Position numbers and translations under genes: made by a program | In this document: in pieces, positions 6,434 to 53,497 of the stretch | How positions within the stretch are numbered: position 1 is the stretch's first letter | How the letters are laid out: each line of letters begins with the position of its first letter | Sequence record: MT446415.1 | DNA: 64,000 bases | Strand: one strand, 5' to 3' | Source: Escherichia virus TH44 | Notes under the pieces: generated by a model | What the model was told of the DNA's origin: nothing | Databases searched by the model: none | What the model saw: the letters and a program-made list of their open reading frames with translations, nothing else

Positions 6434-6466
6434 ATTAATCGGGGCTTCGGCCCCTAATGAGGCTTT

Positions 6467-10630: not shown

Positions 10631-12010
10631 ATGTCTGACGTTTTAAGTATGATGTCCAAACAGTTCAGTGATTCCATGGGGACCCTTAACCCACGCAGTC
10701 TAAAAGACATTATTGATGTGGAAGCATTATCATATGCTATCTACACTGTGGAAGGTCGCGCAATCCCAAACATGATTGATGGTTTTAAACCAGTTCACAG
10801 ATTTGTTATGGCGAGAGCATTAGACCTGGCACGTGGTGATAAGAATAAATTCCATAAGGTTGCATCCATCGCAGGTGGCGTAGCTGATTATGGTTATCAC
10901 CATGGCGAAGCATCAGCGGAAGAAGCAACTTCTGGTCTGGTCGCAACATATAAAAATGAATACCCCATGTTTGATGGACAAGGCAACTTTGGTTCCAGAA
11001 TGGTGCCAGAAGCATCATCAGCTCGTTATGTATTCGCACGGGTTTCAAAGAACTTTTATAACTTGTTTAAGGATACAGAATATGCTCCGGTCCATCCTGA
11101 TGAAGAACATAAGCCTCCTGCTTTTTATCTTCCTGTTATTCCTACTGTATTACTTAACGCCACTTCTGGGATTGCTGTTGGCTTCGCTACTGATATTCTG
11201 CCTCATTCGTTCCAGGACGTCAAGGAAGCTGTTAAAGCTATCGTGGAAGGTCGGGAGCCGGTTGCTCCGAAAGTAAAATATCCAGAATTCCGCGGTAAAG
11301 TTGTTGAGCTGGAAGAGCCTGGTAAGTATGAGCTTCATGGCACGTACAAAATGACTTCCAGGACCCAAATGGAAATTACTGAAATCCCGGTCCAATGGAA
11401 CCTGGAAAAGTATACAAGTAAAATCCTGGACCCGCTGGAAGAGAAAGGTTTTATCACCTGGAAAGATAACTGCGGCGAGCATGGTTTTGGGTTTAAGATT
11501 AAATTCCGCAAAGAATACAAGCTGGATGGCACCGAAGAAGAAAATCATGAGAAAATCATGAAAGACTTTGGTCTGATTGAGAAGCTCTCCCAGAACTTAA
11601 CAGTGCTTAATCACAAAGGCAAGCTGGCTGAATACACCAACACGCTTGACCTGATTCGTGATTTCGTTGATGTCCGTAAGACTTATGTTCAAGTGCGAAT
11701 TGACAGTAAGATTAAAGAAACTGAAGCGGCATTTAAACTGGCCCGGGCAAAAGTCTTCTTTATTAAAGAAGTGATTGATGGTAAAGTTGTTATCCAGGGG
11801 AAACCTCGTAAGAAGTTGATTGAGGAACTCCAGGCGAGTGAAATATATGGCGATTATGCAGAGAAGTTAGTGGCGATGAACATCTACCATATGACCTCTG
11901 ATGAAGCTAAGAAGCTTGCGGATGAAGCTAAGGCTAAGAAAGCTGAGCATGAGTACTGGAAGACAACTGACGTTAAAACTGAATATCTTAATGATTTGGA
12001 GGCTCTATGA
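10631..12010 (+). CDS. 52: DNA topoisomerase II medium subunit (GyrA-like)
   Basis: 459 aa; N-terminus matches T4 gp52 pattern. Confidence 0.9.
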   Translation: MSDVLSMMSKQFSDSMGTLNPRSLKDIIDVEALSYAIYTVEGRAIPNMIDGFKPVHRFVMARALDLARGDKNKFHKVASIAGGVADYGYHHGEASAEEATSGLVATYKNEYPMFDGQGNFGSRMVPEASSARYVFARVSKNFYNLFKDTEYAPVHPDEEHKPPAFYLPVIPTVLLNATSGIAVGFATDILPHSFQDVKEAVKAIVEGREPVAPKVKYPEFRGKVVELEEPGKYELHGTYKMTSRTQMEITEIPVQWNLEKYTSKILDPLEEKGFITWKDNCGEHGFGFKIKFRKEYKLDGTEEENHEKIMKDFGLIEKLSQNLTVLNHKGKLAEYTNTLDLIRDFVDVRKTYVQVRIDSKIKETEAAFKLARAKVFFIKEVIDGKVVIQGKPRKKLIEELQASEIYGDYAEKLVAMNIYHMTSDEAKKLADEAKAKKAEHEYWKTTDVKTEYLNDLEAL

Positions 12011-12435: not shown

Positions 12436-13044
12436 GTGAACAAGTTAAATTATATCGTTAAATGCTCCCAGAACGCGCTGCATGAGACTGATGTTAATGC
12501 TCTGGTGTTTGTATACAAAAACAACTTCGTGAGTCCAGAGGTTGTTTTAGACCAGCAGAATACATCAATTGATAGTGTGCAGACATTGTTGAATAACAAC
12601 TATGTTGAAGCTTCTGGTGATGGTTTGATGGTTACAGAAAAGGGTGTTGACCTTATTCTGGATGCAGCTGAACTTTGGGCGAATGAAAATAATCCTGACC
12701 TTCTGGAAGTGAAGAAGACAAGAACAAAACGCGGTGTGACTGATGAAATGGAAGCGACTGCAGAATATATCAAAGAGCAATTGTTGTCTATTGGTATTGA
12801 CTTTAAGAGCATTTCAGAAGACCGCAGCAATCTGATTGTGAAGTTCAAGCGTGTCAAGACATTAAAACAGATTGATGTTCGTCGTGATGGTCAGATTCGC
12901 GTACATGCGTATAATACTGAACAAAAGATAGTAAAACAGTTTACAGACGTGGGATTTAGCGTTAAAGTAGGTGGATTGAATACCTACATTGACAACGTTA
13001 TGTCAACTGAAAACATTCAACATGTTATTAACATCTTAAAGTGA
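12436..13044 (+). CDS. motA: middle transcription activator MotA
   Basis: 202 aa, GTG start; similarity to T4 MotA incl. SGDGL motif; position between 52 and asiA. Confidence 0.8.
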   Translation: MNKLNYIVKCSQNALHETDVNALVFVYKNNFVSPEVVLDQQNTSIDSVQTLLNNNYVEASGDGLMVTEKGVDLILDAAELWANENNPDLLEVKKTRTKRGVTDEMEATAEYIKEQLLSIGIDFKSISEDRSNLIVKFKRVKTLKQIDVRRDGQIRVHAYNTEQKIVKQFTDVGFSVKVGGLNTYIDNVMSTENIQHVINILK

Positions 13045-14459: not shown

Positions 14460-14735
14460 ATGACTAAATTTGAAATCGTTTCTGAAATTGTTACTGTAAC
14501 TTCAATTTTGATTAAAACCGACCGGGAAGATATTACGATGAAGCGTGATGTGTTTATCGCGTTTTTGAATGAGTTGGGATTGAGGAATGAGAATGGTAAT
14601 GAGTTAAACAATGTATCGTTTAACAAGTTGTTTAAAAGTTTATCTGAAGATGAAATTGAACAAATCATTGAACAATTTAACGAAGGATTCGAAGATATAC
14701 ACCGTTATCTTATGATGTATACCTCCGGATTCTAA
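14460..14735 (+). CDS. asiA: anti-sigma-70 factor AsiA
   Basis: 91 aa; similarity to T4 AsiA (ASILIK..REDI, FIAFLNE, EQFNEGFE..YRYL.MYT). Confidence 0.85.
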   Translation: MTKFEIVSEIVTVTSILIKTDREDITMKRDVFIAFLNELGLRNENGNELNNVSFNKLFKSLSEDEIEQIIEQFNEGFEDIHRYLMMYTSGF

Positions 14736-15385
14736 CGTGTACGCCCGAGCGTACGACCTGCTTGTCCACACATAGCAGAAAGCCTATCAAAACTAAGGTT
14801 AGGTTTTTGCTTATACCAGTACAGCGAAACTGTGCCTGCATAAACGTTTTCCAAATTAAAGAATGGGCAGCTAAACATATATGCGAAGCTGCTTTTTTTC
14901 TTTGTTGGTAAGAATACAGATTCCGTACTGGATTCAAAATAATTACCATTAACCCCCGCCAAATATTCCGCCGAAGTTTTATCTATTGGAAACCCACCTA
15001 AATTTTTTTCGTCGACTGTATCAGGCAATATCCCCTCATATCCCACCATATCCACAAAGTAGTTAAGGTTAGTTGGTCTAAAAGAATATATTGCTGTAAA
15101 GTCTGCCCCACTTGACGAGTGGACTATCTGGATTTGCTCGATAGCTGCAATTTTAAATCTGTTATCCTGGTCTTGCCTTATCATTTCAGTGTATGAGGCA
15201 TATGAAGCATCCCTGTACGCATCTAAAAGTGCATCACCTTTATACCAGATTACCGCCATTAAAAATAATAGAACAATAACTAGTACCCGGGAAAAAACAA
15301 CTTTCCCGGTCGCATTATCTTTAAAAATTCTATCAAGAAGTCCAAAAAGTAGGTCGGGTATTGATATTCCTACTTTTGGTTCCAT
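14732..15385 (-). CDS. t: holin T
   Basis: 217 aa; strong similarity to T4 holin (FKDNATGKV, LEQLQIVH, VYSFRP.NLNYFVD, YMYSCP.FNL.N.YAGT). Confidence 0.9.
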   Translation of the reverse strand: MEPKVGISIPDLLFGLLDRIFKDNATGKVVFSRVLVIVLLFLMAVIWYKGDALLDAYRDASYASYTEMIRQDQDNRFKIAAIEQIQIVHSSSGADFTAIYSFRPTNLNYFVDMVGYEGILPDTVDEKNLGGFPIDKTSAEYLAGVNGNYFESSTESVFLPTKKKSSFAYMFSCPFFNLENVYAGTVSLYWYKQKPNLSFDRLSAMCGQAGRTLGRTR

Positions 15386-15403: not shown

Positions 15404-15411
15404 TATTTATA
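15404..15411 (-). promoter_or_regulatory. late promoter TATAAATA for t
   Basis: minus-strand TATAAATA 19 nt upstream of t start codon. Confidence 0.5.
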
Positions 15412-15422
15412 GCGCTTATGTA

Positions 15423-16205
15423 CTATAGCCAAGACCCATAGATAGTGCCTGTGGCGCCCCATGAAGGGGAACTTCCGAATACCGCGCGTCCGGCTCCGCC
15501 CTGCGAGCCGTATGTAACGCTTCGTCCATAAGCGCCTCCACCAGCCCCGCCCGCGTCGCCACCATTACCACCACCCCACTGTCCGCCAAAGCTACCACCG
15601 CCACCTGGTCCGGTATAACTAGCGTTGCCACCTGGGTTTACGGCACCATTAGTACCACCTAATCCATATGGTCTACCGCCACCGCCACCAGCAGTACCAG
15701 CTTCAAGCCAAGAGTTATTTGAAGCACATCCGGCACCACCGCCGCCACCTGAAGCTATAACACCATAGTTCCAAATACGGAGTCTGCCTCCAATGTCGTT
15801 TTGAATTACATCACCACCATTTGTATCGGCTATCCAAACACGGGTCCCACCATTACCGCCGCGTCCCCACATATGAACACCACCATGAATATTCAAAGTA
15901 ACGTATTCATTAGGAGTATCGCCGTACATAAAGAACAATGGAACATCTTTAGTATAAGATACTAAATCACCTGTGATATTAAACACAATAGGTGCAGCAC
16001 CGGCTTCAAAACAACGGTCTCTAAACCATTGTCCGTTAAAGTTGTGGTCCGCCCCAAGTGTATGAATTACTTCAACAGACCGACCTATCATATTACTCAT
16101 CCAAAACGGAATACCCATTCTCAATCGTTGGGCCGCGCCGCCCATCCAATTTTGTCCGGTATTAACTGCTGCAGACCATCCTACCCACGGTCCTTCAACT
16201 GCCAT
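15423..16205 (-). CDS. 38: gp38 receptor-binding adhesin, T2-type with glycine-rich motifs
   Basis: about 260 aa; C-terminal half made of poly-Gly motifs separated by short variable segments; ATG at 16203-16205 with GGAGG SD. Confidence 0.75.
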
Positions 16206-16236
16206 ATAAACCTCCAAGGGGCCGAAGCCCCTCTTA
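16206..16236 (-). promoter_or_regulatory. intercistronic hairpin GGGGC-UUCG-GCCCC between 37 and 38
   Basis: perfect 5-bp GC stem with UUCG tetraloop on the mRNA strand, directly upstream of gp38 SD; no U-run. Confidence 0.4.
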
Positions 16237-19200
16237 TTATTTTAACAATGATTTAATTAATGCTTTAAGTTCTTCAATCTCTGATTTCAATTCTGCTATT
16301 TCTGCAGTGTGCTCATTGATTGCAGCTGTATTTAAACCAATTACACCGTTATAGTTTAAACGAAGTAAAGCTTCACCATCAGGGTCACCTTCAACCAATT
16401 CAGGTAAAATAGCTTGAACTTCTTGAGCAATTAAACCAGCATTGGGTTCCCATTTCTGATTACCTTCTTCATCCAGCCCACGTTTCTGCATATAAGTGTA
16501 ACCGTTAATTTTAGAAAGCTTCTGAGAAGCATTTTCAAATTTAACAAGGTCTTTTTTAACACGAATATCAGAACGAACATAAACGTCACGAACAAATGTT
16601 GAATAGCTATCGCTCTGTTGGATTAAATGACCGAAAGAAATAATAGCTCTTCCGGTTTCAGTCCAAAGCGCACCATTTGTACCCCATAACCCAGTATGTT
16701 CATGATAAGCAGATGACCATGAAGCAATATGCATTCCATTTGCAACCATATTGATTCGGCCATCACCACCATGTGATAATCCTGTGTCGTTATCACCAAT
16801 AGCAATACTAGGAGAGCCTAATCCATTAACAGTACCAACACCAATTGCAGGAGTCTGGACTAAAGTCGGGGCATAAAATAAACCACTAGAGTGGAATTCG
16901 AAAATACCTACAGGACCATCACCCGTATCGGCATTACCAACACGAATTATGGCTTGTCCCCATGCTTGAGGAGTACGACGCGTACCTAATTCAACAGAAG
17001 TAGTATAACCCTGGCCATTAATTACAGATTTGCCTTTAATAATAGGATAATAACAGTCTTCACCTACGCCACCGAAATCAAGGAAATAAGGTGCTTCTTC
17101 TCGCCATTGGTCACCCCAGCCACCACCGTGACGTGCAATCCAGTTAGCACCGTTCATATGAATACGGTCGCGGTTTATATTGAATATTGAAACACCTTGT
17201 GGAGATAAAATAACCTCACCATTCGGGTTAATATTGATACCGCCTTGGGATTGGAAGCTCCAGAAGGCTAAACCGTTATCAGCGCCGTCATTACCTACAT
17301 ACCAGTTATCAACGCCACCTTTTTTACCCTTAACATAACCTGCTTCATCTGCCGGATAATCAATAACCACAGCGTCTGAGTTGGTTTTAAGAGTTAAGCG
17401 GCCTGTCATCGTGTCGCCTTCTTTAGAAACACGAGTAGCAACAGCATCAAGAAGGTTAGTTATATTACCTGCACCATTAAATCCGTTCCAGATATCAGAG
17501 AAAATGTTACCATTTCGGGCAATAGAAGCTTCGCCACCACCAACCACAACGTTATCCGGGAAATGCGGAATGCAGTTACTATCAAATTTAATAATTTTGT
17601 TTTCATCACCGGCGGCATTAATTCTATGGATTACAAAATCACCAGAATTAAGTTCGGTTCCCATAGACCACATTATACCGCCATTTAAGTATTTCTGTTT
17701 TATAATTGGAATATAAGCAGAAGCGGAATCATTATCAATTTCTTGATAAATAGGTGCCGCTTGTCCGTACTGATTAATATACAGCTCGGTACCATTACCA
17801 TGGCCTGTGAACTTAATAGAACCATTTGCGTTCATATCCAAATTAGTATTATCCATATTAGGAATACTTACTTTACCTGTATCAAGGTCCATACGGAACG
17901 GGCGAAGGGGTCCGATATTTCCAGTTTTACCTTGTCCAAACTCGGTAGGAATAATATGAAGACTGTTTTCTGAGCGACGGAAAATGACACCGTAATCATC
18001 GTTCCAAATTCTAAGAGCATTGACAGCATTACCAGCAATAGTGCCAGAGGCGTTAACTTCTTTACCGACATTTATGCTTTCGTTTACATTCATACCACCA
18101 TTTAAATGGGCTTCAACGTTATTATCAGTCTTACGCTGAATATAATGCATCCAACCAACGTCATCAGATATTTCCATTACGTTTTTGCGGTCACCGGCGA
18201 CATTAGTAAAGGTGTTACCCCAAACGTTAATAGTCATGTTATCAACTGAACTATTTCCTGTAGTATTTCCTCTGAACATCAGAGTAGATGCATTGTTGCG
18301 ACCGTCAATATTAACCGAACCACCAGCCACATCTATATTACCGGGGGTAACTAACAGACCACCTGCAGTGTTAACGTTTGTAGTACCCTTACCACGGAAA
18401 TAGTGATGATAATTACCGCCTTGATAATATCCTAAAAGTGTTTGACCGTCACCATATGCGTTATTATCATGGTAAGTAACAACAGTAGCCAATGCATAGT
18501 TTTCTGACGGAGGTGTGGTCAAATCTGTGCCGTTTACGGAGTAGCCCATGACCATTTTTCTAAGACTGGTTGTTTCTGCAGGGCCGGAAAGGAAAGTTCT
18601 TGTTCCGTTGTTTACATTAAAGAAATATCCGTCTTGGTACCATTGTAAGCCGGTATCATTATCGCCAAGAGCAATTGAAGCCGTTCCTAATTCAGAATAT
18701 CCTTTAGGGCCGTTCGGAAGACCTATAGAAACAGAATGATTGGCTTTCAATCCACCCGACCAAGTAAACGACCAAAGATAAGCGTCTAGGCCATCTCCGG
18801 CATACCAGGTTATCCCGTCATTATCTTTAACTTCGTGGAATATACCTGCTCCTACAGCATTTCGCATAACACGGAGGTGGTTAATAGCTGTTTCACTTTC
18901 TGCCAATGGGCTATTATCGGCCATTGAATAGATATCATAATCGCCAGCCTTCTTCCCGTTTGTAATAACTTTATCGGTCAGAATTTGTGGAGACGAAATA
19001 GATTTCCATGCCGATACTTCAGGTGAAGTGAACAAACCATTACCTGAAAATGCATAAGTGCTTTCACTACCAGCGGCATAATCTTGAACACGGATATTAA
19101 CTACCTGAGTTGTCAAACCTGCGTTATTAGGAGAAAAGATAATGCCACGTTCACGTGATGCACCGTCAAAGAATCTCAAATGAGAAGTTGAAGCACTCTT

Positions 19201-19539
19201 AGAAATAAGTTCTCCGCCTTCAGTCATTATCTGACCTGCAGCAATAATATCACGAGTTACACGAGCAATACCGGTTAAATTAAAATCACCTGTTTGGGTA
19301 AAGGTACCATTTAGGGTGTAATCACCGGTCTGGTTGTAATTTCCTTTATGAATAACGTTACCATCAATATTACCGCCTTTAGCAAAGCCAAGGTCGATGA
19401 TGGCGCCAGTGTCATCTTTAGTAAAAAGTAAGCGGTCTTTCAGGTTGATAGCCAGTTCACCTTCAGCAAGAACTGTTGGCGCCGGGCGAACGCCGGCAAC
19501 CTTACTTCTTTTAAATTGTATTTGTTTTAAAGTAGCCAT
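16237..19539 (-). CDS. 37: long tail fiber distal subunit gp37 with C-terminal intramolecular chaperone domain
   Basis: 1100 aa; N-terminus near-identical to T4 gp37 start; C-terminal about 110 aa show SDIRVKKD auto-cleavage-type motif and coiled-coil tail. Confidence 0.9.
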
Positions 19540-19547
19540 AATGCCTC

Positions 19548-20195
19548 TTAATAATATCCAAAATCTTGTACGGAGTCTTTAAGAACGATTTGGTCAAAAC
19601 GGGGCACGTGAGCCGGGTCTGATGCTGGGTTCCTAGAGAAGAAATTAGGTGCTGACAAGTTACCTGTCATTGTTTGCAATGTACTATTATTTAGTTCTAC
19701 CTGTTGCTGGTTAGTTACATTACCAAGACCAACTTGAGCTTTTGATGGAGTATTTCCTGGAGAAAATACACGACCTGTTTCATCATAAATTTGTCGAGCT
19801 AACGTATCACCCATAACAGTAAGACGTTTTGCTCCTGTTGTAGTGTCAGGGTCAAAAATAACGAATGGTGTTCCCGTTTCAGTCTCAAATCCAAACGGCC
19901 CCTTAATACGGAAAGATGCGGTAAATGGTGTGCCGCCTGTTCTCGCTCCCAACTTAATCCCGTAACCATTTGAATCATTAAATGTCAGGCCTTGTTCGAA
20001 ATATACGTTTGCTTTATAATTACCACCAAGAGCTTTAGAAACGAAATCGTTATCGACTGCTTGTGGCTTGTTATATTCGGAATAAATTTTATAAGTTTTG
20101 AAATATAAGTCATTACTGACTGGTGTTAATGGGAAATTACCTTGGTGCCAGAGGACCGAACCTCCGGCTGTTGAGCCTAGTTTTAAATCTGCCAT
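19548..20195 (-). CDS. 36: long tail fiber distal connector gp36
   Basis: 215 aa; position and size as T4 gp36. Confidence 0.8.
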   Translation of the reverse strand: MADLKLGSTAGGSVLWHQGNFPLTPVSNDLYFKTYKIYSEYNKPQAVDNDFVSKALGGNYKANVYFEQGLTFNDSNGYGIKLGARTGGTPFTASFRIKGPFGFETETGTPFVIFDPDTTTGAKRLTVMGDTLARQIYDETGRVFSPGNTPSKAQVGLGNVTNQQQVELNNSTLQTMTGNLSAPNFFSRNPASDPAHVPRFDQIVLKDSVQDFGYY

Positions 20196-20230: not shown

Positions 20231-20238
20231 TATTTATA
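20231..20238 (-). promoter_or_regulatory. late promoter TATAAATA for 36-37
   Basis: minus-strand TATAAATA 36 nt upstream of gp36 start. Confidence 0.5.
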
Positions 20239-20240
20239 AC

Positions 20241-20265
20241 GAAAAAAGGACTCCGAAGAGTCCTA
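20241..20265 (-). terminator. intrinsic terminator after gene 35
   Basis: minus-strand hairpin ggactcttcggagtcc followed by U6. Confidence 0.5.
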
Positions 20266-21393
20266 TTGTTTTTCCCGTAGTTCGGCTGCATATATCTTGC
20301 CGGCTCTCGGAGCTTGCGCATCTGGTAATGTTACAATTGTATTGCCTGTATTTGCTGCATCGTTTGCGTATGACATCCTTATGCCGTTGACACCAAATTC
20401 AGCTGGTTTGAATGCCGAGTCACCTCTGGTTATCTCACCAATAACAATATTACGTATTGACCCAGTTCCCACAGCTACAGTCCTTGATGTTACTACTGTA
20501 AAGCCATCGGCTCCCGCCGGAATCTCGACATATCTTTCGAAACTCGCCCAAGCACCAGCTGGAACGTTTGTTGCAATATCGATGTTTGTATTTGATATTG
20601 GAGAAGTGCTAGGACTTTTAAAGAATCGAACCGAAGTCCTTACAGTCCCGATGGCTTTCAGTTCAGCGTCAAATGACATCTGAAACTTCAGGTAAAGCAC
20701 ATCCAAAGGTAAAAGGTTATAGGTGCTCATAGGAGTCACCAGGTCCTCTGTGGGGAACCTTCTAATTGCGGTTGATGTTCCATCACCTGTTGATGAATAC
20801 GTGCTCTCGTCTTCCGTTATGCGCACAGGATAGCCTGTTGCTCCTATATCACTAAAGGTATCATAAATTACTTCAAGTGGAGTCGAAACATCCTCAACTA
20901 ACTTCCCGTCATTATACTTAACATGCTCCGAAACAATTACGTTCCGGCCGGTTATGTAAAAAGCCGAGTACGATGTATCAACTTTATCAATCAGCCATTT
21001 CTCGGGGAATGCTCTTGAACCGCATTTACGAAACCAGTCAATTAATGTCTGTGAAGCATTTAATTTCCCAGAAGAAATAAAAGCAATCAATCTTCCGGCT
21101 GGTACAGATTCCACAAAGGTGATTAATGCCTGACTGATTACATCGTGTGTGCTGGTCAATGAATAGTTTTTCGTGTTAACAATTTTATTCGTAGTTGTAT
21201 CAATTTCTAATAGAGTCAAACCATTACCAAAAGTAGTTGGTCCGATTCGTTCATCCTGAAATTTGATATACGATTTCACCGTGGAAAGAGTACAGCTCCC
21301 TGCTATACTCATTTTAAATTTAACGGCATTATTTTCTGATATAACTGGCGTTTGGACGTATCCTTGTCCAAACTCTGCCATAAATTTTTCCAT
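20263..21393 (-). CDS. 35: long tail fiber hinge connector gp35
   Basis: 376 aa; position and size as T4 gp35. Confidence 0.8.
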   Translation of the reverse strand: MEKFMAEFGQGYVQTPVISENNAVKFKMSIAGSCTLSTVKSYIKFQDERIGPTTFGNGLTLLEIDTTTNKIVNTKNYSLTSTHDVISQALITFVESVPAGRLIAFISSGKLNASQTLIDWFRKCGSRAFPEKWLIDKVDTSYSAFYITGRNVIVSEHVKYNDGKLVEDVSTPLEVIYDTFSDIGATGYPVRITEDESTYSSTGDGTSTAIRRFPTEDLVTPMSTYNLLPLDVLYLKFQMSFDAELKAIGTVRTSVRFFKSPSTSPISNTNIDIATNVPAGAWASFERYVEIPAGADGFTVVTSRTVAVGTGSIRNIVIGEITRGDSAFKPAEFGVNGIRMSYANDAANTGNTIVTLPDAQAPRAGKIYAAELREKQ

Positions 21394-21401
21394 ATTACCT
21401 C

Positions 21402-24400
21402 TTATTCAACCCATTCAAACTTAACGGATTTAGTGGTCGGGTCTGGGATGATGCGTACGTTACCAATACGTAACCAATCGAGAATGGTTAAGTTCCCCAT
21501 CGTTGTGTTGTCAGCCGGTAATGCGCCAACATCCTCTGCAGACGGAGGGTTATCCGCGGTGTAAACCATTGCGAAAGTCGTCCATGCAGATTTATTTTTC
21601 TGCCACGTACGAGTATAACGAATAGTACCACCGTTCAATCCAGTTGGATAGCAAACCCAATCTTGATAGCACGAATCCAGCGTATTACCAAACTGAGTTA
21701 ATGTACCAGGATATTTAATTTGTTTATCACGAACCGAATAGTCAAACCAGGTTCCGCGCAGTTTTTGACCAGAGCTGCCTAATACTTCATCACCGAGTGT
21801 ACCATCGTCATTACGATAACGAATAGCAGGCGAGGCGAAAGTTCCATTTTCAGTTAACCAACCAGAAGCATTCCAAACTTCATCAGTTACCCCGACAGGT
21901 TTAGTTTGAACTGTATCAATGTTTACCTGACGTTTTAACTTCATTGTCCAATAACCAGGGAACTGGCTATAAGTCGGTTCATCATTGATATCGACAGACC
22001 AGAAGCCAACAGTATCTGCAGTCGGAGCTTGTGCGATAAGACTTGGTTTCGTACCGAATACACGGACCGGAGCATTCACACGGAGCACACCAGACATTGT
22101 ATCACCGGCTTGGTTAACAAAGTTTCTATCTACAATCTCAACAGCGTTTTTCTCGGTAAGGACTTTAAATGCACCGCCACCATTTGCTATGATATTACCA
22201 GCATCAAGAGTTTTAAGCACTAAATTCTGCGAGTTATCACCCAGAGACAGAGTTGCACCAGAAGTTTCACCCGTTGTGGTTGCGATAGTACGACCATTTA
22301 GAACGTAATTATTTTTGGCTTGAACATCATTTCCGGCGCTAAGGTTGTTCAATACAGCAGCATTACCCGAGGCGGTGTTTAATGTCAATACGTTAGTCGT
22401 ATCGCCAATAGTCATTGTCGTTCCGGTGGAAGGAGCGGTGATTTTCCACTTGTTAGTTCCGTTAACAACATTCACAGTTCCGAACGTCGAAGTGCCAGCC
22501 GTTACATCAGTAAACACTGCAGTGCTCGTCGATACAACCGGAGCAGAGATATTTGTCTGTTTAGTAAGAGTTAACGCACCTTCAACAGTCTGAGCAATAT
22601 CACGACGAATAAACTGGGTCGAATCAAGGCTATCAAGTTTTTCGGCATTAACAGCCATCGCATTTATCGGTAAGAAGTTTTGCAATACGCGGTTTAATTC
22701 GTAAGGCGAAACTGCATATCCAGATTTTGCATAGCTAACCAGTTTACTTGGGTCCGGAGTATACACACCATTTGCATATGTAAATCCTGCGCCTGTCGTT
22801 GTAGTTGCGGCCGAAGTAGCTGCACCAGAAGATAAACGAACAAATCCGCGCAGTGTTTCAGATGCTTCCCAGGTTGTTTCCGTTTGAGCAATATATTTCA
22901 GCGCCGACGGACTGATGGCCAATACTTTTGATGTACCTGCTGTTGCTTCTGCGTTTGTCGCGATTCGAACAATACCTTCGGCATTTTCAGTGGCTTTTTT
23001 CGACATCAATTTAAGCGGGGTAACGATTGTTTTATCGTCAGTGCCGGTATTGACTTCGCCCTGAGTTGCTAATCTTGCCGTGCCGCGTTGAGTCTCATTT
23101 GCTTCAAGAATATTCAGGCTATAATGGTCCCAGAGCGTCCCTGTTTCTACTAAACCACTTAATGCATTAACAGAAGTACGAGCAGTATTATTAAATCTAG
23201 TTTTAATTTTTAATGGAGTTGAGATACGAGTATCATCAGTTCCAGTATCAAATTCTGATTGCGTAGCAATCTCGGCTATGCCGGTTAACGTTTCTGATGC
23301 TTTACGGTCATTTAACGTTTTAGGAGTCACAGCTCTGGTATAATCGGTTCCTGCATCTGTTTCTACTTGAGTTGCAATCTCGATTAAACCGATACGGGAA
23401 TCAAGAGCAGTTTTGCGATGCAACATTTCTGGAGTAACGACTGCGTTTGCCCAGCCGGATTGAGAAGTACCAGCAATTACTTCACTTTCAACCGCAAGAA
23501 TAACTGCACCTTGCTGAGTGTAAGTAGCTTTGTACTGGTCAAGAGCTTTCGGAGAAACAACCAGATTAACCGTATTTTTATTATAAACGTTTGTACCATT
23601 TAATTCACGCGAAGCAGCAGGGGTTGCACCGGTTGTTGAAACGTAAGTTACAATACCAGATAGCGATTCCGAGCCCTGGCGCGCTTGCAGTTTCTTCGGA
23701 GTGATAATTGTGGTATCATCTACACCTGCATCGGTTTCTTGCTGTGTGGCGAGTTCTGCGAGCCCACGTCTCGTTTCTGTTGCTGTACGTTCATTGAGTT
23801 TTTTCGGAGAAATAATTACATCATCAACAAATGCAAAATCACTGTTCTGATTTACTTGAGCAGTCGTTGCGATTCTGGCAATACCTCGTTGGTTCTCTTT
23901 AGCGACACGGTTGGCCAAAGTCTGAGGGGTAATTGCGAGTTCTTTCTCTGGGTTATTTTCATGGTCAACGTTTGCCTGAGTCTGGTTTGCCAGAGCAATA
24001 ACACCAAGGCGTGCACGCGTGGAATCATTTAATGAGTCAACTCGTTCAACAGTAGGAACGTTTTGAGCGACAACCCAATAACTTTTTCCAGATACTTTAT
24101 CTTCCGCATATGACAATTCAATAACCGGAGTATAACTGATATTACCATTAAAGGTCAATGAATCAACCAGCACCCAAGTTGTATCCGGTGGATACTCGGA
24201 ACGTTTAGGGAATTGCAGCAATTTAATGTCAGATGCAATCTTATCACCAACAGCAGCTCTTATATTAACAGTCTGTGATTTACGGAGATAGTTCAGTGCA
24301 ATCTTAACAATGTCGCCTTGCAAAACATCAGTTGGTAAATCGATATTAATCGTTGCCGGAGTTGAATTATCTTCACCGAATACAATGATGCTTTCGTTTG

Positions 24401-25358
24401 GTAAAAGTTTAACACTATCGCGAATAATACGCAGACGAGTTTTATTATCACCGTCCCAAACATGCCAGAGTTTTTCGGCAGCATTATAAACGAAGAAACC
24501 ATCACCTGTAGTACGGAATTCCATTTGATGCTGGCCAGCTTTTCCAAGACTGGAACTGGTGTCAAAAGTTTCAACCATCAGGTGGAACGTTGGTCCCATG
24601 CCATCGATATCAACAGATTTGACAATATCGCCCTGGTTTGCATACTTAGGAAGAATGAAAGTAATCGGTGCACCAGTTGTATAACGACGCATAATAAAGT
24701 CGCCAGCTTGTGCATGGAAACGACCTGTCGATGGTTCTACTCTGATACCACGTTCTTCGTTGCCAGCTTCCCAAAATTGCCACAGGCGGTTTGAAAAGAT
24801 AAGCATGTTATAAGAGAATGGTTTGGTAATTAAAACTTCCGGATACTGATTACCAAAGCGAACAATCTTTTGGTTACCTGCCCCTGGTACGTTGCTTGAC
24901 TGGATTTTAATTTCATTGTAACCAACGTTCCCACCGATATCTTTAATAACGATGGTATCGCCATCAACCGGGTTTGGAGGCAATGTAAATGTGGTAAAGC
25001 TTGCAGCCGAGTCGACGGCGATAAATTCACCCGAGTTAAGCTGACGAGTTGGAGATGCAACAGTTTCCCATTTCGGGTCAGTACGAGTTGCTAACCAATA
25101 CTGAGGGGTAAATGCTCCAGCTGGTGCCGGAATATCACGTTGAGCAACCCAAATACGGTTATCGTTAATAACTGCAAAGTTCTTTTTGTATCCGCGCGTT
25201 GCATCATATTGTTGAACTGTGTTTTCTTCTATAAAGAAATCTACGTTAACGCCGTCTGATAAAACTGAGTAATCAGCTTTTGCGACATTAATGACTTTCT
25301 CACCAGCAGCATCGAGACCGGATGTTGCTCTGAATGCTGGTTTTAAAATATCGGCCAT
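21402..25358 (-). CDS. 34: long tail fiber proximal subunit gp34
   Basis: 1318 aa; repetitive fibre-like sequence; synteny. Confidence 0.9.
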   Translation of the reverse strand: MADILKPAFRATSGLDAAGEKVINVAKADYSVLSDGVNVDFFIEENTVQQYDATRGYKKNFAVINDNRIWVAQRDIPAPAGAFTPQYWLATRTDPKWETVASPTRQLNSGEFIAVDSAASFTTFTLPPNPVDGDTIVIKDIGGNVGYNEIKIQSSNVPGAGNQKIVRFGNQYPEVLITKPFSYNMLIFSNRLWQFWEAGNEERGIRVEPSTGRFHAQAGDFIMRRYTTGAPITFILPKYANQGDIVKSVDIDGMGPTFHLMVETFDTSSSLGKAGQHQMEFRTTGDGFFVYNAAEKLWHVWDGDNKTRLRIIRDSVKLLPNESIIVFGEDNSTPATINIDLPTDVLQGDIVKIALNYLRKSQTVNIRAAVGDKIASDIKLLQFPKRSEYPPDTTWVLVDSLTFNGNISYTPVIELSYAEDKVSGKSYWVVAQNVPTVERVDSLNDSTRARLGVIALANQTQANVDHENNPEKELAITPQTLANRVAKENQRGIARIATTAQVNQNSDFAFVDDVIISPKKLNERTATETRRGLAELATQQETDAGVDDTTIITPKKLQARQGSESLSGIVTYVSTTGATPAASRELNGTNVYNKNTVNLVVSPKALDQYKATYTQQGAVILAVESEVIAGTSQSGWANAVVTPEMLHRKTALDSRIGLIEIATQVETDAGTDYTRAVTPKTLNDRKASETLTGIAEIATQSEFDTGTDDTRISTPLKIKTRFNNTARTSVNALSGLVETGTLWDHYSLNILEANETQRGTARLATQGEVNTGTDDKTIVTPLKLMSKKATENAEGIVRIATNAEATAGTSKVLAISPSALKYIAQTETTWEASETLRGFVRLSSGAATSAATTTTGAGFTYANGVYTPDPSKLVSYAKSGYAVSPYELNRVLQNFLPINAMAVNAEKLDSLDSTQFIRRDIAQTVEGALTLTKQTNISAPVVSTSTAVFTDVTAGTSTFGTVNVVNGTNKWKITAPSTGTTMTIGDTTNVLTLNTASGNAAVLNNLSAGNDVQAKNNYVLNGRTIATTTGETSGATLSLGDNSQNLVLKTLDAGNIIANGGGAFKVLTEKNAVEIVDRNFVNQAGDTMSGVLRVNAPVRVFGTKPSLIAQAPTADTVGFWSVDINDEPTYSQFPGYWTMKLKRQVNIDTVQTKPVGVTDEVWNASGWLTENGTFASPAIRYRNDDGTLGDEVLGSSGQKLRGTWFDYSVRDKQIKYPGTLTQFGNTLDSCYQDWVCYPTGLNGGTIRYTRTWQKNKSAWTTFAMVYTADNPPSAEDVGALPADNTTMGNLTILDWLRIGNVRIIPDPTTKSVKFEWVE

Positions 25359-28592: not shown

Positions 28593-28620
28593 GGGGACCT
28601 TCGGGTCCCTTTTTTATTTT
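28593..28620 (+). terminator. intrinsic terminator ggggaccttcgggtccc + T-run
   Basis: GC hairpin followed by tttttatttt. Confidence 0.6.
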
Positions 28621-36740: not shown

Positions 36741-36743
36741 GGA

Positions 36744-36763
36744 AAGGGCTTCGGCCCTTTTTG
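36744..36763 (+). terminator. hairpin aagggcttcggccctt + T-run
   Basis: GC hairpin then ttttt directly before denA ATG. Confidence 0.5.
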
Positions 36764-46032: not shown

Positions 46033-46060
46033 AGGGACTCTTCGGAGTCCCTTTTTATTT
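46033..46060 (+). terminator. intrinsic terminator gggactcttcggagtccc + T-run
   Basis: GC hairpin followed by tttttatttt. Confidence 0.6.
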
Positions 46061-50994: not shown

Positions 50995-50997
50995 CAA

Positions 50998-51018
50998 AAG
51001 GGCTTCGGCCCTTTTTTA
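50998..51018 (+). terminator. intrinsic terminator gggcttcggccc + T6
   Basis: GC hairpin followed by tttttt. Confidence 0.6.
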
Positions 51019-53467: not shown

Positions 53468-53497
53468 AAAAGGGACCTTCGGGTCCCTTTCTTTTTA
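53461..53497. terminator. bidirectional intrinsic terminator at early/late convergence
   Basis: hairpin agggaccttcgggtccct flanked by A-run upstream and T-run downstream; serves plus ORF 53177 and minus gene 54. Confidence 0.6.

Follow-up and report, generated by a model that had tools for sequence, protein, structure and literature searches.

A T2/S16-type gp38 adhesin and a predicted self-cleaving gp37 at the long tail fibre tip of a Dhakavirus-like phage

Introduction

Genes 37 and 38 of Escherichia virus TH44 raise the question of which protein at the long tail fibre's tip recognizes the host: gp37 itself, as in T4, or a separate gp38 adhesin that caps a processed gp37, as in T2. FadL/OmpF is the receptor of T2 gp38. 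T2 gp37 undergoes C-terminal processing, and a gp38 of about 260 amino acids forms its cap (Drexler, Riede and Henning 1986; Trojet et al. 2011; PMC3157838); for T6 as well as T2, both the proteolytic cleavage of gp37 and the capping by gp38 have been described (PMC3157838). The same gene pair with the same architecture is found in Salmonella phage S16, for which the structure of the gp37–gp38 tip has been solved (PDB 6F45; Dunne et al. 2018). An initial annotation of the TH44 locus, made from the DNA letters and a list of open reading frames, proposed a T2-type adhesin, a self-cleaving gp37 and a UUCG hairpin between the two genes. Here, these proposals were examined by computational analysis of the locus within a stretch of 64,000 nucleotides of the phage genome (sequence record MT446415.1), referred to below as the window.

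Results

Gene order and transcription

The source phage of the window is a Dhakavirus-like (JS98-group) T-even phage, and its flanking genome is 92–96% identical to Dhakavirus-type phages. The genes are arranged as 34-35-36-37-38-t followed by the convergent gene asiA, which is the T-even order. Gene 38 (15423–16205) lies between gene 37 (16237–19539) and the holin gene t (14732–15385), the product of which matched Pfam Phage_holin_T (1.2e-66). A pattern search found late promoter boxes before genes 34, 36 and t only. The T4-type box upstream of gene 36, TATAAATA, is located at 20231–20238 on the minus strand; the search detected none between 20231 and gene 38, and the next box after 20231, at 15404–15411, precedes gene t. 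Genes 36, 37 and 38 are probably cotranscribed from the late promoter at 20238–20231.

gp38 belongs to the T2/S16-type adhesins

Gene 38 (15423–16205, minus strand) encodes a protein of 260 amino acids, from the ATG at 16205–16203 to the stop codon at 15425–15423, which Pfam and PDB matches identify as a tail-fibre tip adhesin. A mechanical list of open reading frames had placed the start at TTG 16217. This codon was rejected and the ATG at 16205 preferred, because the TTG lies within the stem of a hairpin and upstream of the Shine–Dalgarno (SD) sequence. The SD sequence read from the DNA, GGAGG (16211–16215, minus strand), stands 5 nt before the ATG and is conserved in relatives as GGAG or AGGA. 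From its first residue onwards, gp38 aligns with S16 gp38 and with Pfam Gp38_N.

The Pfam search showed that gp38 matches GP38 (PF05268) over the full model (positions 1–218; 267.7 bits, 1.1e-79) and Gp38_N (PF21721) with 71.8 bits (4.5e-20), both above the curated cut-off of 25 bits that applies to each family. Full-length alignments were also obtained with the solved adhesins of PP01 (9V85, 1e-74) and S16 (6F45_D, 4.8e-49). These matches bear out the proposed T2/S16-type assignment, and by its sequence gp38 is a member of this adhesin family. In virions it would be located at the fibre tip and bind a host outer-membrane receptor. Identity over the full length is 49% to S16 gp38, which has the same three tryptophans and the same glycine-rich motifs, and overall identity is 45% to T2 gp38, in which glycine-rich motifs likewise alternate with hypervariable segments (PMC3157838).

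Three regions can be distinguished in gp38. The attachment domain at the N-terminus (residues 1–44; 16074–16205, minus strand) contains W7, W20 and W35, which are invariant in a 12-sequence panel that includes S16; in S16 gp38, the three conserved tryptophans fit into pockets of gp37 (PMC6851490). The central conserved region (residues 45–112; 15870–16073, minus strand), for which homology with the S16 and PP01 proteins predicts a beta-helix, is 96–99% identical to the corresponding part of P8, JS98, PhAPEC2, IME281 and FL31, and 91% identical to the PP01 receptor-binding domain. The specificity domain (residues 113–245; 15471–15869, minus strand) was delimited by composition and panel alignment, and consists of glycine motifs and hypervariable segments. 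Glycine makes up 38% of residues 113–245 versus 12.5% of residues 1–112, in agreement with the earlier description of the C-terminal half as glycine-rich motifs split by variable segments. The motifs, among them GRGGNGG, GGGGGAG, GGGGG, GLGG, GPGGGG, GGGNGG, GGAGGG and GGAG, are invariant across the 12-sequence panel, whose variation falls in the intervening segments. The domain can be aligned over its length to 6F45_D and 9V85, in both of which the aligned part is a polyglycine-II sandwich, and this is the fold predicted for it.

gp37 carries a Peptidase_S74 chaperone domain

Gene 37 (16237–19539, minus strand) encodes the distal subunit of the long tail fibre as a precursor of 1100 amino acids with Pfam Gp34_trimer and Peptidase_S74 matches, and matching phage records annotate the gene as long tail fibre distal subunit. 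The Peptidase_S74 match (PF13884) covers residues 990–1049 and model positions 1–57 of 58, with 47.5 bits against a cut-off of 22 bits. It begins at the motif SDIRVKKD, which starts at residue 990 of 1100 (S990 codon 16572–16570; R989 codon 16573–16575); from S990 to K1100 there are 111 residues (16240–16572, minus strand), where the initial annotation had estimated roughly 110. In 12 aligned gp37 C-termini, the S, D, R and K of SDIRVK are invariant, and S990 and K995 are the putative Ser–Lys pair of the S-D-x-R-x-K pattern.

The comparison with S74 domains suggested in the initial annotation was carried out with a profile built from the 12 gp37 C-termini. It reached the PDB entries 7DC3, the self-cleaving domain of MYRF (9e-11), 8JOV (7e-8) and 3GUD, the chaperone of the GA-1 neck appendage (1.5e-3). 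In these alignments, SDIRVK of gp37 corresponds to SDRRIK of S16, ADLRAK of MYRF 7DC3 and SDERHK of 3GUD, and the 3GUD chain starts, as its residue 1, at the serine that aligns with the motif serine of gp37. S74 chaperones such as those of the K1F endosialidase, GA-1 and MYRF share with gp37 a position at the C-terminus of a trimeric fibre, the S-D-x-R-x-K start and a long terminal helix; however, their passenger is a sialidase or a transcription factor, whereas here it is a T-even tail fibre with predicted self-cleavage. Taken together, the Pfam score and the profile matches support the S74-like chaperone proposed for gp37, and the C-terminus is, on this sequence evidence, a Peptidase_S74 intramolecular chaperone domain.

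The last 29 residues (1072–1100; 16240–16326, minus strand) show hydrophobic residues at 3–4 spacing, the heptad pattern of the coiled-coil tail that had been proposed, and can be aligned to the regions of 6F45_A and MYRF 7DC3 that hold their terminal helices. A single-sequence AlphaFold model of the 111-residue domain was poor (pLDDT 64.9, pTM 0.36) and gives no independent evidence for the fold; the terminal 29 residues were its only confidently helical part (pLDDT of about 90).

The C-terminus of gp37 matched 6F45_A at 1.4e-42. Its chaperone domain shares 51% identity with the C-terminus of S16 gp37, where the S-D-x-R-x-K-K motif likewise occurs and marks the cleavage site that has been published; identity to the T2 gp37 C-terminus is lower, at 35%. 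S16 gp37 cleaves itself at DLNVS^SDRRIKK and releases a domain of 113 residues (PMC7917993). The equivalent position in gp37 reads DVYVR^SDIRVKK, and self-cleavage between R989 and S990 with release of 111 residues is most likely on this analogy. By comparison with S16, T2 and T6, autoproteolytic release would follow trimerization.

A T4-type tip is not supported

Several matching phage records name gp38 a 'distal long tail fiber assembly catalyst', which would make it a T4-style assembly chaperone that is absent from the virion and leave receptor binding to gp37 itself. However, such names were taken from gene 38 of T4 because of the position of the gene, and gp38 matches adhesin families only, namely Pfam GP38, Gp38_N and the crystallized adhesins of S16 and PP01. 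In gp37, a phmmer search of the C-terminal 187 amino acids against all PDB chains found no T4-type tip structure at E ≤ 1, the only matches being 6F45_A and 7DC3, and the terminal domain is a predicted self-cleaving chaperone. Pfam gp37_trimer appeared in gp37 only below threshold (17 bits versus a cut-off of 21.7) and in the shaft, at residues 732–774. In addition, adsorption of Dhakavirus LHE83 is blocked by antiserum to its gp38 homologue (PMC10987938). The T4-style role for gp38 is extremely unlikely and was rejected on the family matches, the adhesin structures and the gp37 C-terminus matches. The lack of a T4-type tip match is consistent with the earlier statement that host range is not set by gp37 as in T4.

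A conserved UUCG hairpin separates genes 37 and 38

The features listed in the initial annotation were all present, on the minus strand. The UUCG hairpin between genes 37 and 38 was indeed found just upstream of the gene 38 SD sequence, but the positions given for it, 16206–16236, are those of the entire 31-nt intergenic spacer; the C(UUCG)G stem-loop itself occupies 16233–16216 and is followed by the SD at 16215–16211. Its core is GGGGC-UUCG-GCCCC (16231–16218, minus strand). The 71-nt region folded with −18.5 kcal/mol (z = −2.35; 3 of 200 shuffles were as good), and the SD was unpaired in the predicted fold.

The hairpin is kept in 16 distinct 37/38 junctions. Each junction was folded individually, with the loop as the anchor for counting base pairs, because a MAFFT alignment of the junctions had put the stems out of register. 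The results showed G-C to C-G and G-C to A-U exchanges: pair 2 is G-C in 11 junctions and C-G in five, and pairs 4 to 6 swap between G-C and A-U. These compensatory changes imply that the hairpin is more than a chance structure. In the window as a whole, 14 UUCG hairpins were counted versus 2.0 ± 1.3 in shuffles; about ten of them are intergenic and in sense orientation relative to the genes around them, and the one between genes 35 and 36 (20264–20247) is terminator-like. A search of the whole window with Rfam at gathering thresholds gave no family match; the hairpin thus falls outside the curated RNA families.

The T2 37/38 junction has a UUCG hairpin at the same place. Hairpins of the C(UUCG)G type in T4 mRNAs were reportedly the subject of work by Tuerk et al. 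in 1988. Their history is covered in PMC4371310. The 37/38 copy resembles these T4 hairpins in its GC stem, its C-G pair closing a UUCG loop, its intergenic location and its sense orientation, but differs from them in adjoining the SD of the next gene and in having no U-run after it on the sense strand. It is a classic T-even feature. Its role in late mRNA, where it would act just before the gene 38 ribosome-binding site, is most likely that of a barrier to 3′ decay or of a weak attenuator.

Other roles for the hairpin were weighed against this one. It might act mainly on the plus strand, as an intrinsic terminator for early asiA transcripts running antisense to t and gene 38: asiA and t converge, overlapping by 4 nt, and no terminator separates them, and a scan marked the plus-strand copy (16217–16232, followed by CTTATTATTT) as terminator-like but left the minus-strand copy unmarked. 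Across the 16 distinct junctions, the mean T count in the 8 nt beyond the stem is 5.1 in antisense versus 2.8 in sense, although this T-richness is partly forced, since the genome is AT-rich and the antisense strand carries the complement of stop and Lys codons. The loop itself points the other way. In most junctions UUCG, or another U-starting tetraloop, is in the sense orientation and the antisense loop would read CGAA, which to our knowledge is not a specially stable tetraloop; every other strong UUCG hairpin of the window has the sense orientation of its neighbouring genes. We consider a mainly antisense role unlikely.

It is also conceivable, if rather doubtful, that the hairpin is a damper, transcriptional or translational, which lowers the output of gp38 relative to gp37 to one gp38 per gp37 trimer. 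The means might be partial termination, or crowding of the 30S site by the 3′ end of the hairpin, which touches the SD; in 16 of 16 distinct junctions the stem ends 0–4 nt before the SD and 10–16 nt before the AUG. No late promoter belongs to gene 38 alone, and the structure of the S16 tip shows a 3:1 stoichiometry of gp37 to gp38 (PMC6851490). Nevertheless, the predicted fold leaves the SD unpaired, and hairpins of the same kind follow many unrelated genes in the window, so a general function as a 3′ barrier or terminator of mRNAs suffices without any appeal to stoichiometry.

The gp38 allele is a JS98-type specificity domain on a different docking module

The closest relatives of gp38 are those of Escherichia phage JS98, Yersinia phage vB_YenM_P8, MN01 and EAWsc9, with 90–97% identity (P8 97%, JS98 90%). 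In the specificity domain, JS98 and P8 are 97–98% identical to the protein studied here, but JS98 shows only 55% identity in the gp38 N-terminal domain and 65% in the gp37 tip and chaperone domain. A near-identical specificity domain beside a divergent N-terminal domain and gp37 tip shows a mosaic of modules, in which a JS98-type specificity domain is joined to an IME281/FL31/P8-type docking module (N-terminal domain and gp37 tip). The result of experimental chimeras, in which the N-terminal part of gp38 must match gp37 (PMC12892980), fits this mosaic. At high coverage, the JS98-type set of hypervariable loops was present in 8 of 842 matching phage records. The closest bearer of these loops, P8, was isolated on Yersinia enterocolitica, and the loops might conceivably account for adsorption across genera.

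The variable segments were aligned with those of receptor-typed adhesins, as had been suggested, and the alignment named no receptor. The panel (OmpA, OmpC, OmpF, FadL and Tsx types) contained no close hypervariable-segment match; identity over the specificity domain was 65–68% to the nearest, the OmpF types, 53% to PP01 (OmpC), 47–49% to the FadL, Tsx and OmpA types, and 44% to S16, which binds Salmonella OmpC. We found no published receptor in the literature for JS98, P8, PhAPEC2 or a Dhakavirus gp38 of the JS98-type allele, and OmpF was mentioned by the authors of vB_YenM_P8 as speculation only. Judging from the sequences, the gp38 receptor is not assignable by alignment. By homology, host range would be set by the variable segments of gp38.

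Discussion

The findings are consistent with a T-even long tail fibre of the T2/JS98 type whose receptor-binding tip is built of two proteins, a gp37 that cleaves itself and a gp38 that caps it. We consider this model very probable, and no sequence evidence contradicting it was found. Its observed part consists of the membership in the protein families, the conservation of the motifs and of the hairpin, and the order of the genes; what we infer is the cleavage, the 3:1 stoichiometry, the location in the virion, the class of receptor and the role of the hairpin. In this model, the 1100-residue gp37 would trimerize with the aid of its own C-terminal Peptidase_S74 domain, which would then cut between R989 and S990 by means of S990 and K995 and be released as 111 residues. 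The exposed gp37 tip would be capped by one gp38 molecule, docked by the helical domain at its N-terminus, the prongs of which would be W7, W20 and W35. In the C-terminal half of gp38, the glycine-rich motifs would fold into a polyglycine-II sandwich, and the hypervariable loops between them would bind an outer-membrane protein and so confer adsorption specificity.

The initial interpretation of a T2-type adhesin with a self-cleaving gp37 is supported, and what it describes is already known, well-described biology; the use of the present analysis lies mainly in annotation and phage engineering, and no open question is resolved by it. Departures from the familiar picture are conceivable, such as JS98-type loops that bind a protein outside the OmpA/OmpC/OmpF/Tsx/FadL set, or a 37/38 hairpin that tunes gp38 to 1:3 or serves as a bidirectional terminator against convergent early transcription, but we regard them as improbable.

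For annotation, host recognition of the source phage would be placed in gp38, and the protein should be named an adhesin rather than the 'assembly catalyst' or 'peptidase' of several public records. Mature gp37 is to be taken as residues 1–989. For engineering, the domain mosaic marks where specificity may be swapped while gp37–gp38 docking is spared; such a swap appears feasible because the docking and specificity modules have been inherited separately, in agreement with the published chimeras.

Genomic setting of genes 37 and 38

Genes 37 (16237-19539) and 38 (15423-16205) are housed in the late tail-fibre block of a T-even phage, on the minus strand, together with genes 34 (21402-25358), 35 (20263-21393) and 36 (19548-20195) and the holin gene t (14732-15385). 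The early genes asiA (14460-14735), motA (12436-13044) and that of a topoisomerase subunit (10631-12010) are on the plus strand, asiA being convergent with the tail-fibre block. Genes t and asiA overlap by 4 nt (14732-14735) with no terminator between them, and early transcripts running past asiA would enter t and gene 38 antisense. Dhakavirus-type (JS98-group) coliphages are 92-96% identical to the first 25 kb of the window, for which the sequence matches included no identical public record. The 37-38 stretch is more diverged than its flanks, with 82-89% identity over 79-93% of its length in the best records.

Two further domain matches were seen in the block. Residues 57-128 of the hinge protein gp35 (20263-21393, minus) match Pfam ILEI (interleukin-like EMT inducer, FAM3-type; E = 1.4e-6) with a score of 29.1 bits, just above the cut-off of 27, and no solved structure is related to gp35 in sequence. 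The gp37 shaft (residues 447-548; 17896-18201, minus) matches Pfam Gp34_trimer (29.9 bits, cut-off 27), a module that it has in common with the proximal fibre protein gp34.

gp38 is a T2/S16-type adhesin

Gene 38 starts at the ATG at 16205, 5 nt after a GGAGG, and stops at 15425-15423, encoding 260 aa. Pfam assigned the product to GP38 (1.1e-79, full model) and Gp38_N (4.5e-20), and its two PDB relatives were 9V85 (1e-74), which is the PP01 gp38 receptor-binding domain (PMC12892980), and S16 gp38 (6F45_D, 4.8e-49, aligned end to end). These matches bear out the T2/S16-type adhesin proposed in the initial annotation, as does the glycine content, which is 12.5% in the N-terminal 112 residues and 38% in residues 113-245, where short non-glycine segments separate the motifs GRGGNGG, GGGGGAG, GGGGG, GLGG, GPGGGG, GGGNGG, GGAGGG and GGAG. 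When gp38 was aligned with 11 adhesins, some from phages with experimentally assigned receptors, W7, W20 and W35 were the same in all, as was each glycine motif, and variation fell in the segments between motifs. Trojet et al. (PMC3157838) described just such an alternation of glycine-rich motifs with hypervariable segments. The solved S16 adhesin packs 10 glycine-rich motifs into a polyglycine-II sandwich, and a role in receptor binding has been proposed for five distal loops (PMC6851490). In many phage records this adhesin is annotated as 'distal long tail fiber assembly catalyst', 'tail protein and peptidase' or 'hypothetical protein', which is misleading; the first is the name of T4 gp38, and such names have been transferred by gene position.

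gp37 carries a C-terminal chaperone domain with a predicted cleavage site

The 1100-residue gp37 has its SDIRVKKD motif from residue 990 onwards; the stretch from there to the C-terminus is 111 residues long, close to the 110 or so initially estimated, and its last 29 residues are heptad-patterned. Comparison with S74 profiles, suggested in the initial annotation, gave a Pfam Peptidase_S74 match at residues 990-1049 (47.5 bits, cut-off 22; model positions 1-57 of 58). A PDB search with the last 187 residues retrieved the S16 gp37 construct 6F45_A (1.4e-42) and, as sole other match, the MYRF self-cleaving domain 7DC3; no T4-type tip structure was matched at E ≤ 1, in agreement with the earlier view that this tip is not as in T4. 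A profile of 12 gp37 C-termini reached 7DC3 (now at 9e-11), the tail-fibre protein 8JOV and the GA-1 neck appendage chaperone 3GUD, in which the residue aligned with the serine of the motif is the first of the chain (SDERHK). The S, D, R and K of S-D-x-R-x-K were invariant in 12/12 of these C-termini, despite several unrelated flanking tip types. The chaperone domain came out poorly in a single-sequence structure model, its terminal helix excepted.

S16 gp37 sheds its C-terminal 113 residues by autocleavage between the two serines of DLNVS^SDRRIKK, exposing the gp38 docking surface, and the same authors predicted DVYIR^SDGRLK as the site in related phages (PMC7917993). The gp37 studied here reads DVYVR^SDIRVKK, so the cut is predicted to fall at R989^S990. 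It is established that gp37 of T2 and T6 is proteolytically processed and then capped by gp38 (PMC3157838, citing Drexler et al. 1986).

Docking and specificity modules have different affinities

The gp38 specificity domain (residues 113-245) is 97-98% identical to those of JS98 and P8 and 89% to that of PhAPEC2, and only 65-68% to those of IME281 and FL31. The gp37 tip and chaperone domain are 93-95% identical to those of P8, IME281 and FL31 and 64-65% to those of JS98 and PhAPEC2, following the gp38 N-terminal domain in their affinities. Thus the gp37 tip, chaperone domain and gp38 N-terminal domain are of IME281/FL31/P8 type, and the gp38 specificity domain is of JS98/PhAPEC2 type. Compared with five phage loci (L005, L007, L008, L009 and L010), 15423-16650 reads as a recombination mosaic. 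The differing affinities mean that a docking module (gp37 tip plus gp38 N-terminal domain) is inherited separately from a specificity module. This mosaic agrees with published chimeras, in which the N-terminal 113 residues of gp38 must match the resident gp37 (PMC12892980).

Receptor of the specificity allele

Of the 842 phage records with a match, only 8 carry the specificity-domain allele at high coverage (P8, MN01, EAWsc9, TH40, two of JS98 and two of PhAPEC2), a rough indicator only, as the BLAST low-complexity filter shortens other matches. A literature search found no experimental receptor for P8, MN01, EAWsc9, TH40, JS98 or PhAPEC2. The aligned panel included the S16 adhesin, whose receptor is OmpC, and gp38 of T2 and T6. 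Typed adhesins are those of IME341 (FadL), IME339 (Tsx), IME340 (OmpA) and IME281 (OmpF) (PMC6499177), and FL31 uses OmpF/TolC (PMC12032242). Identity of the specificity domain was 65-68% to OmpF alleles, 53% to PP01 (OmpC), 44% to S16 (OmpC) and 47-49% to FadL, Tsx and OmpA alleles. The alignment with typed adhesins, as initially suggested, showed hypervariable segments unlike those of every typed allele compared, and no receptor name was assignable from the OmpF, OmpC, FadL, Tsx and OmpA alleles. By analogy, the receptor is expected to be an outer-membrane beta-barrel protein; OmpF is a weak guess.

UUCG hairpins

The initial annotation rightly placed a UUCG hairpin between the two genes, upstream of the gp38 SD, but its interval of 16206-16236 is the whole 31-nt spacer; the stem-loop (GAGGGGC-UUCG-GCCCCUU) occupies 16233-16216 and is directly followed by the SD (16215-16211). 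GC-rich stem-loops occur at the equivalent position in 16 distinct 37/38 junctions, drawn from reference phages and from IMG/VR contigs retrieved with the gp38 alignment. Eight of the 16 have a UUCG loop; in others UACG, CUCG, UUAG or a triloop takes its place. Double substitutions occur in the stem: at pair 2, 11 junctions have G-C and 5 have C-G, and G-C alternates with A-U at pairs 4-6. The stem ends 0-4 nt ahead of the SD in all 16. The GC hairpin was absent from the junction in more distant gp38 loci (33-44% identity; IMG/VR loci L029 and L033-L043), where stop codon and SD are just a few nt apart. Among the loci sampled, the hairpin is therefore restricted to those with closer relatives of gp38, and no Rfam family was found at it.

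Watson-Crick UUCG hairpins numbered 14 in the window, compared with 2.0 ± 1.3 in shuffles, and the strong ones follow closely on the 3' ends of genes, in the intergenic gaps and in sense orientation. GC-rich C(UUCG)G hairpins of this kind were seen on the plus strand, intergenic and sense to the local genes, at 578-593, 2673-2694, 6441-6454 (a 14-nt sequence identical to the 37/38 hairpin), 28594-28609, 36743-36760, 46033-46052, 50996-51015 and 53469-53490 (between convergent genes). On the minus strand, AGGACUC-UUCG-GAGUCCU (20247-20264), followed by UUUUUUCG, comes directly after the gene 35 stop (20263), and a short way downstream lies the late-promoter box of gene 36 (20238-20231). This hairpin resembles the terminator of a 34-35 transcription unit. 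UUCG hairpins of T4 mRNA were reportedly described by Tuerk et al. in 1988. The tetraloop was discovered in T4 mRNAs (PMC4371310), and the hairpins of the window are this classic feature.

Minus-strand late-promoter boxes (TATAAATA) were found only before genes 34, 36 and t, so gene 38 most likely belongs to a 36-37-38 transcript, with the 37/38 hairpin internal. No sense-strand U-run follows this hairpin; its reverse complement has a T-rich tail behind it and was flagged as terminator-like in a terminator scan. Among candidate roles, the hairpin may foremost be a sense-strand decay barrier or weak attenuator; ranked behind this, it may damp gp38 expression, and, last, it may act in antisense to terminate transcripts that read through from asiA.

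Taken together, the observation in the initial annotation is confirmed, and its interpretation found support wherever it could be tested. The 37/38 pair is a textbook T2/S16-type arrangement, already known, and, with near-identical alleles present in public phage genomes, it therefore adds little that is new.
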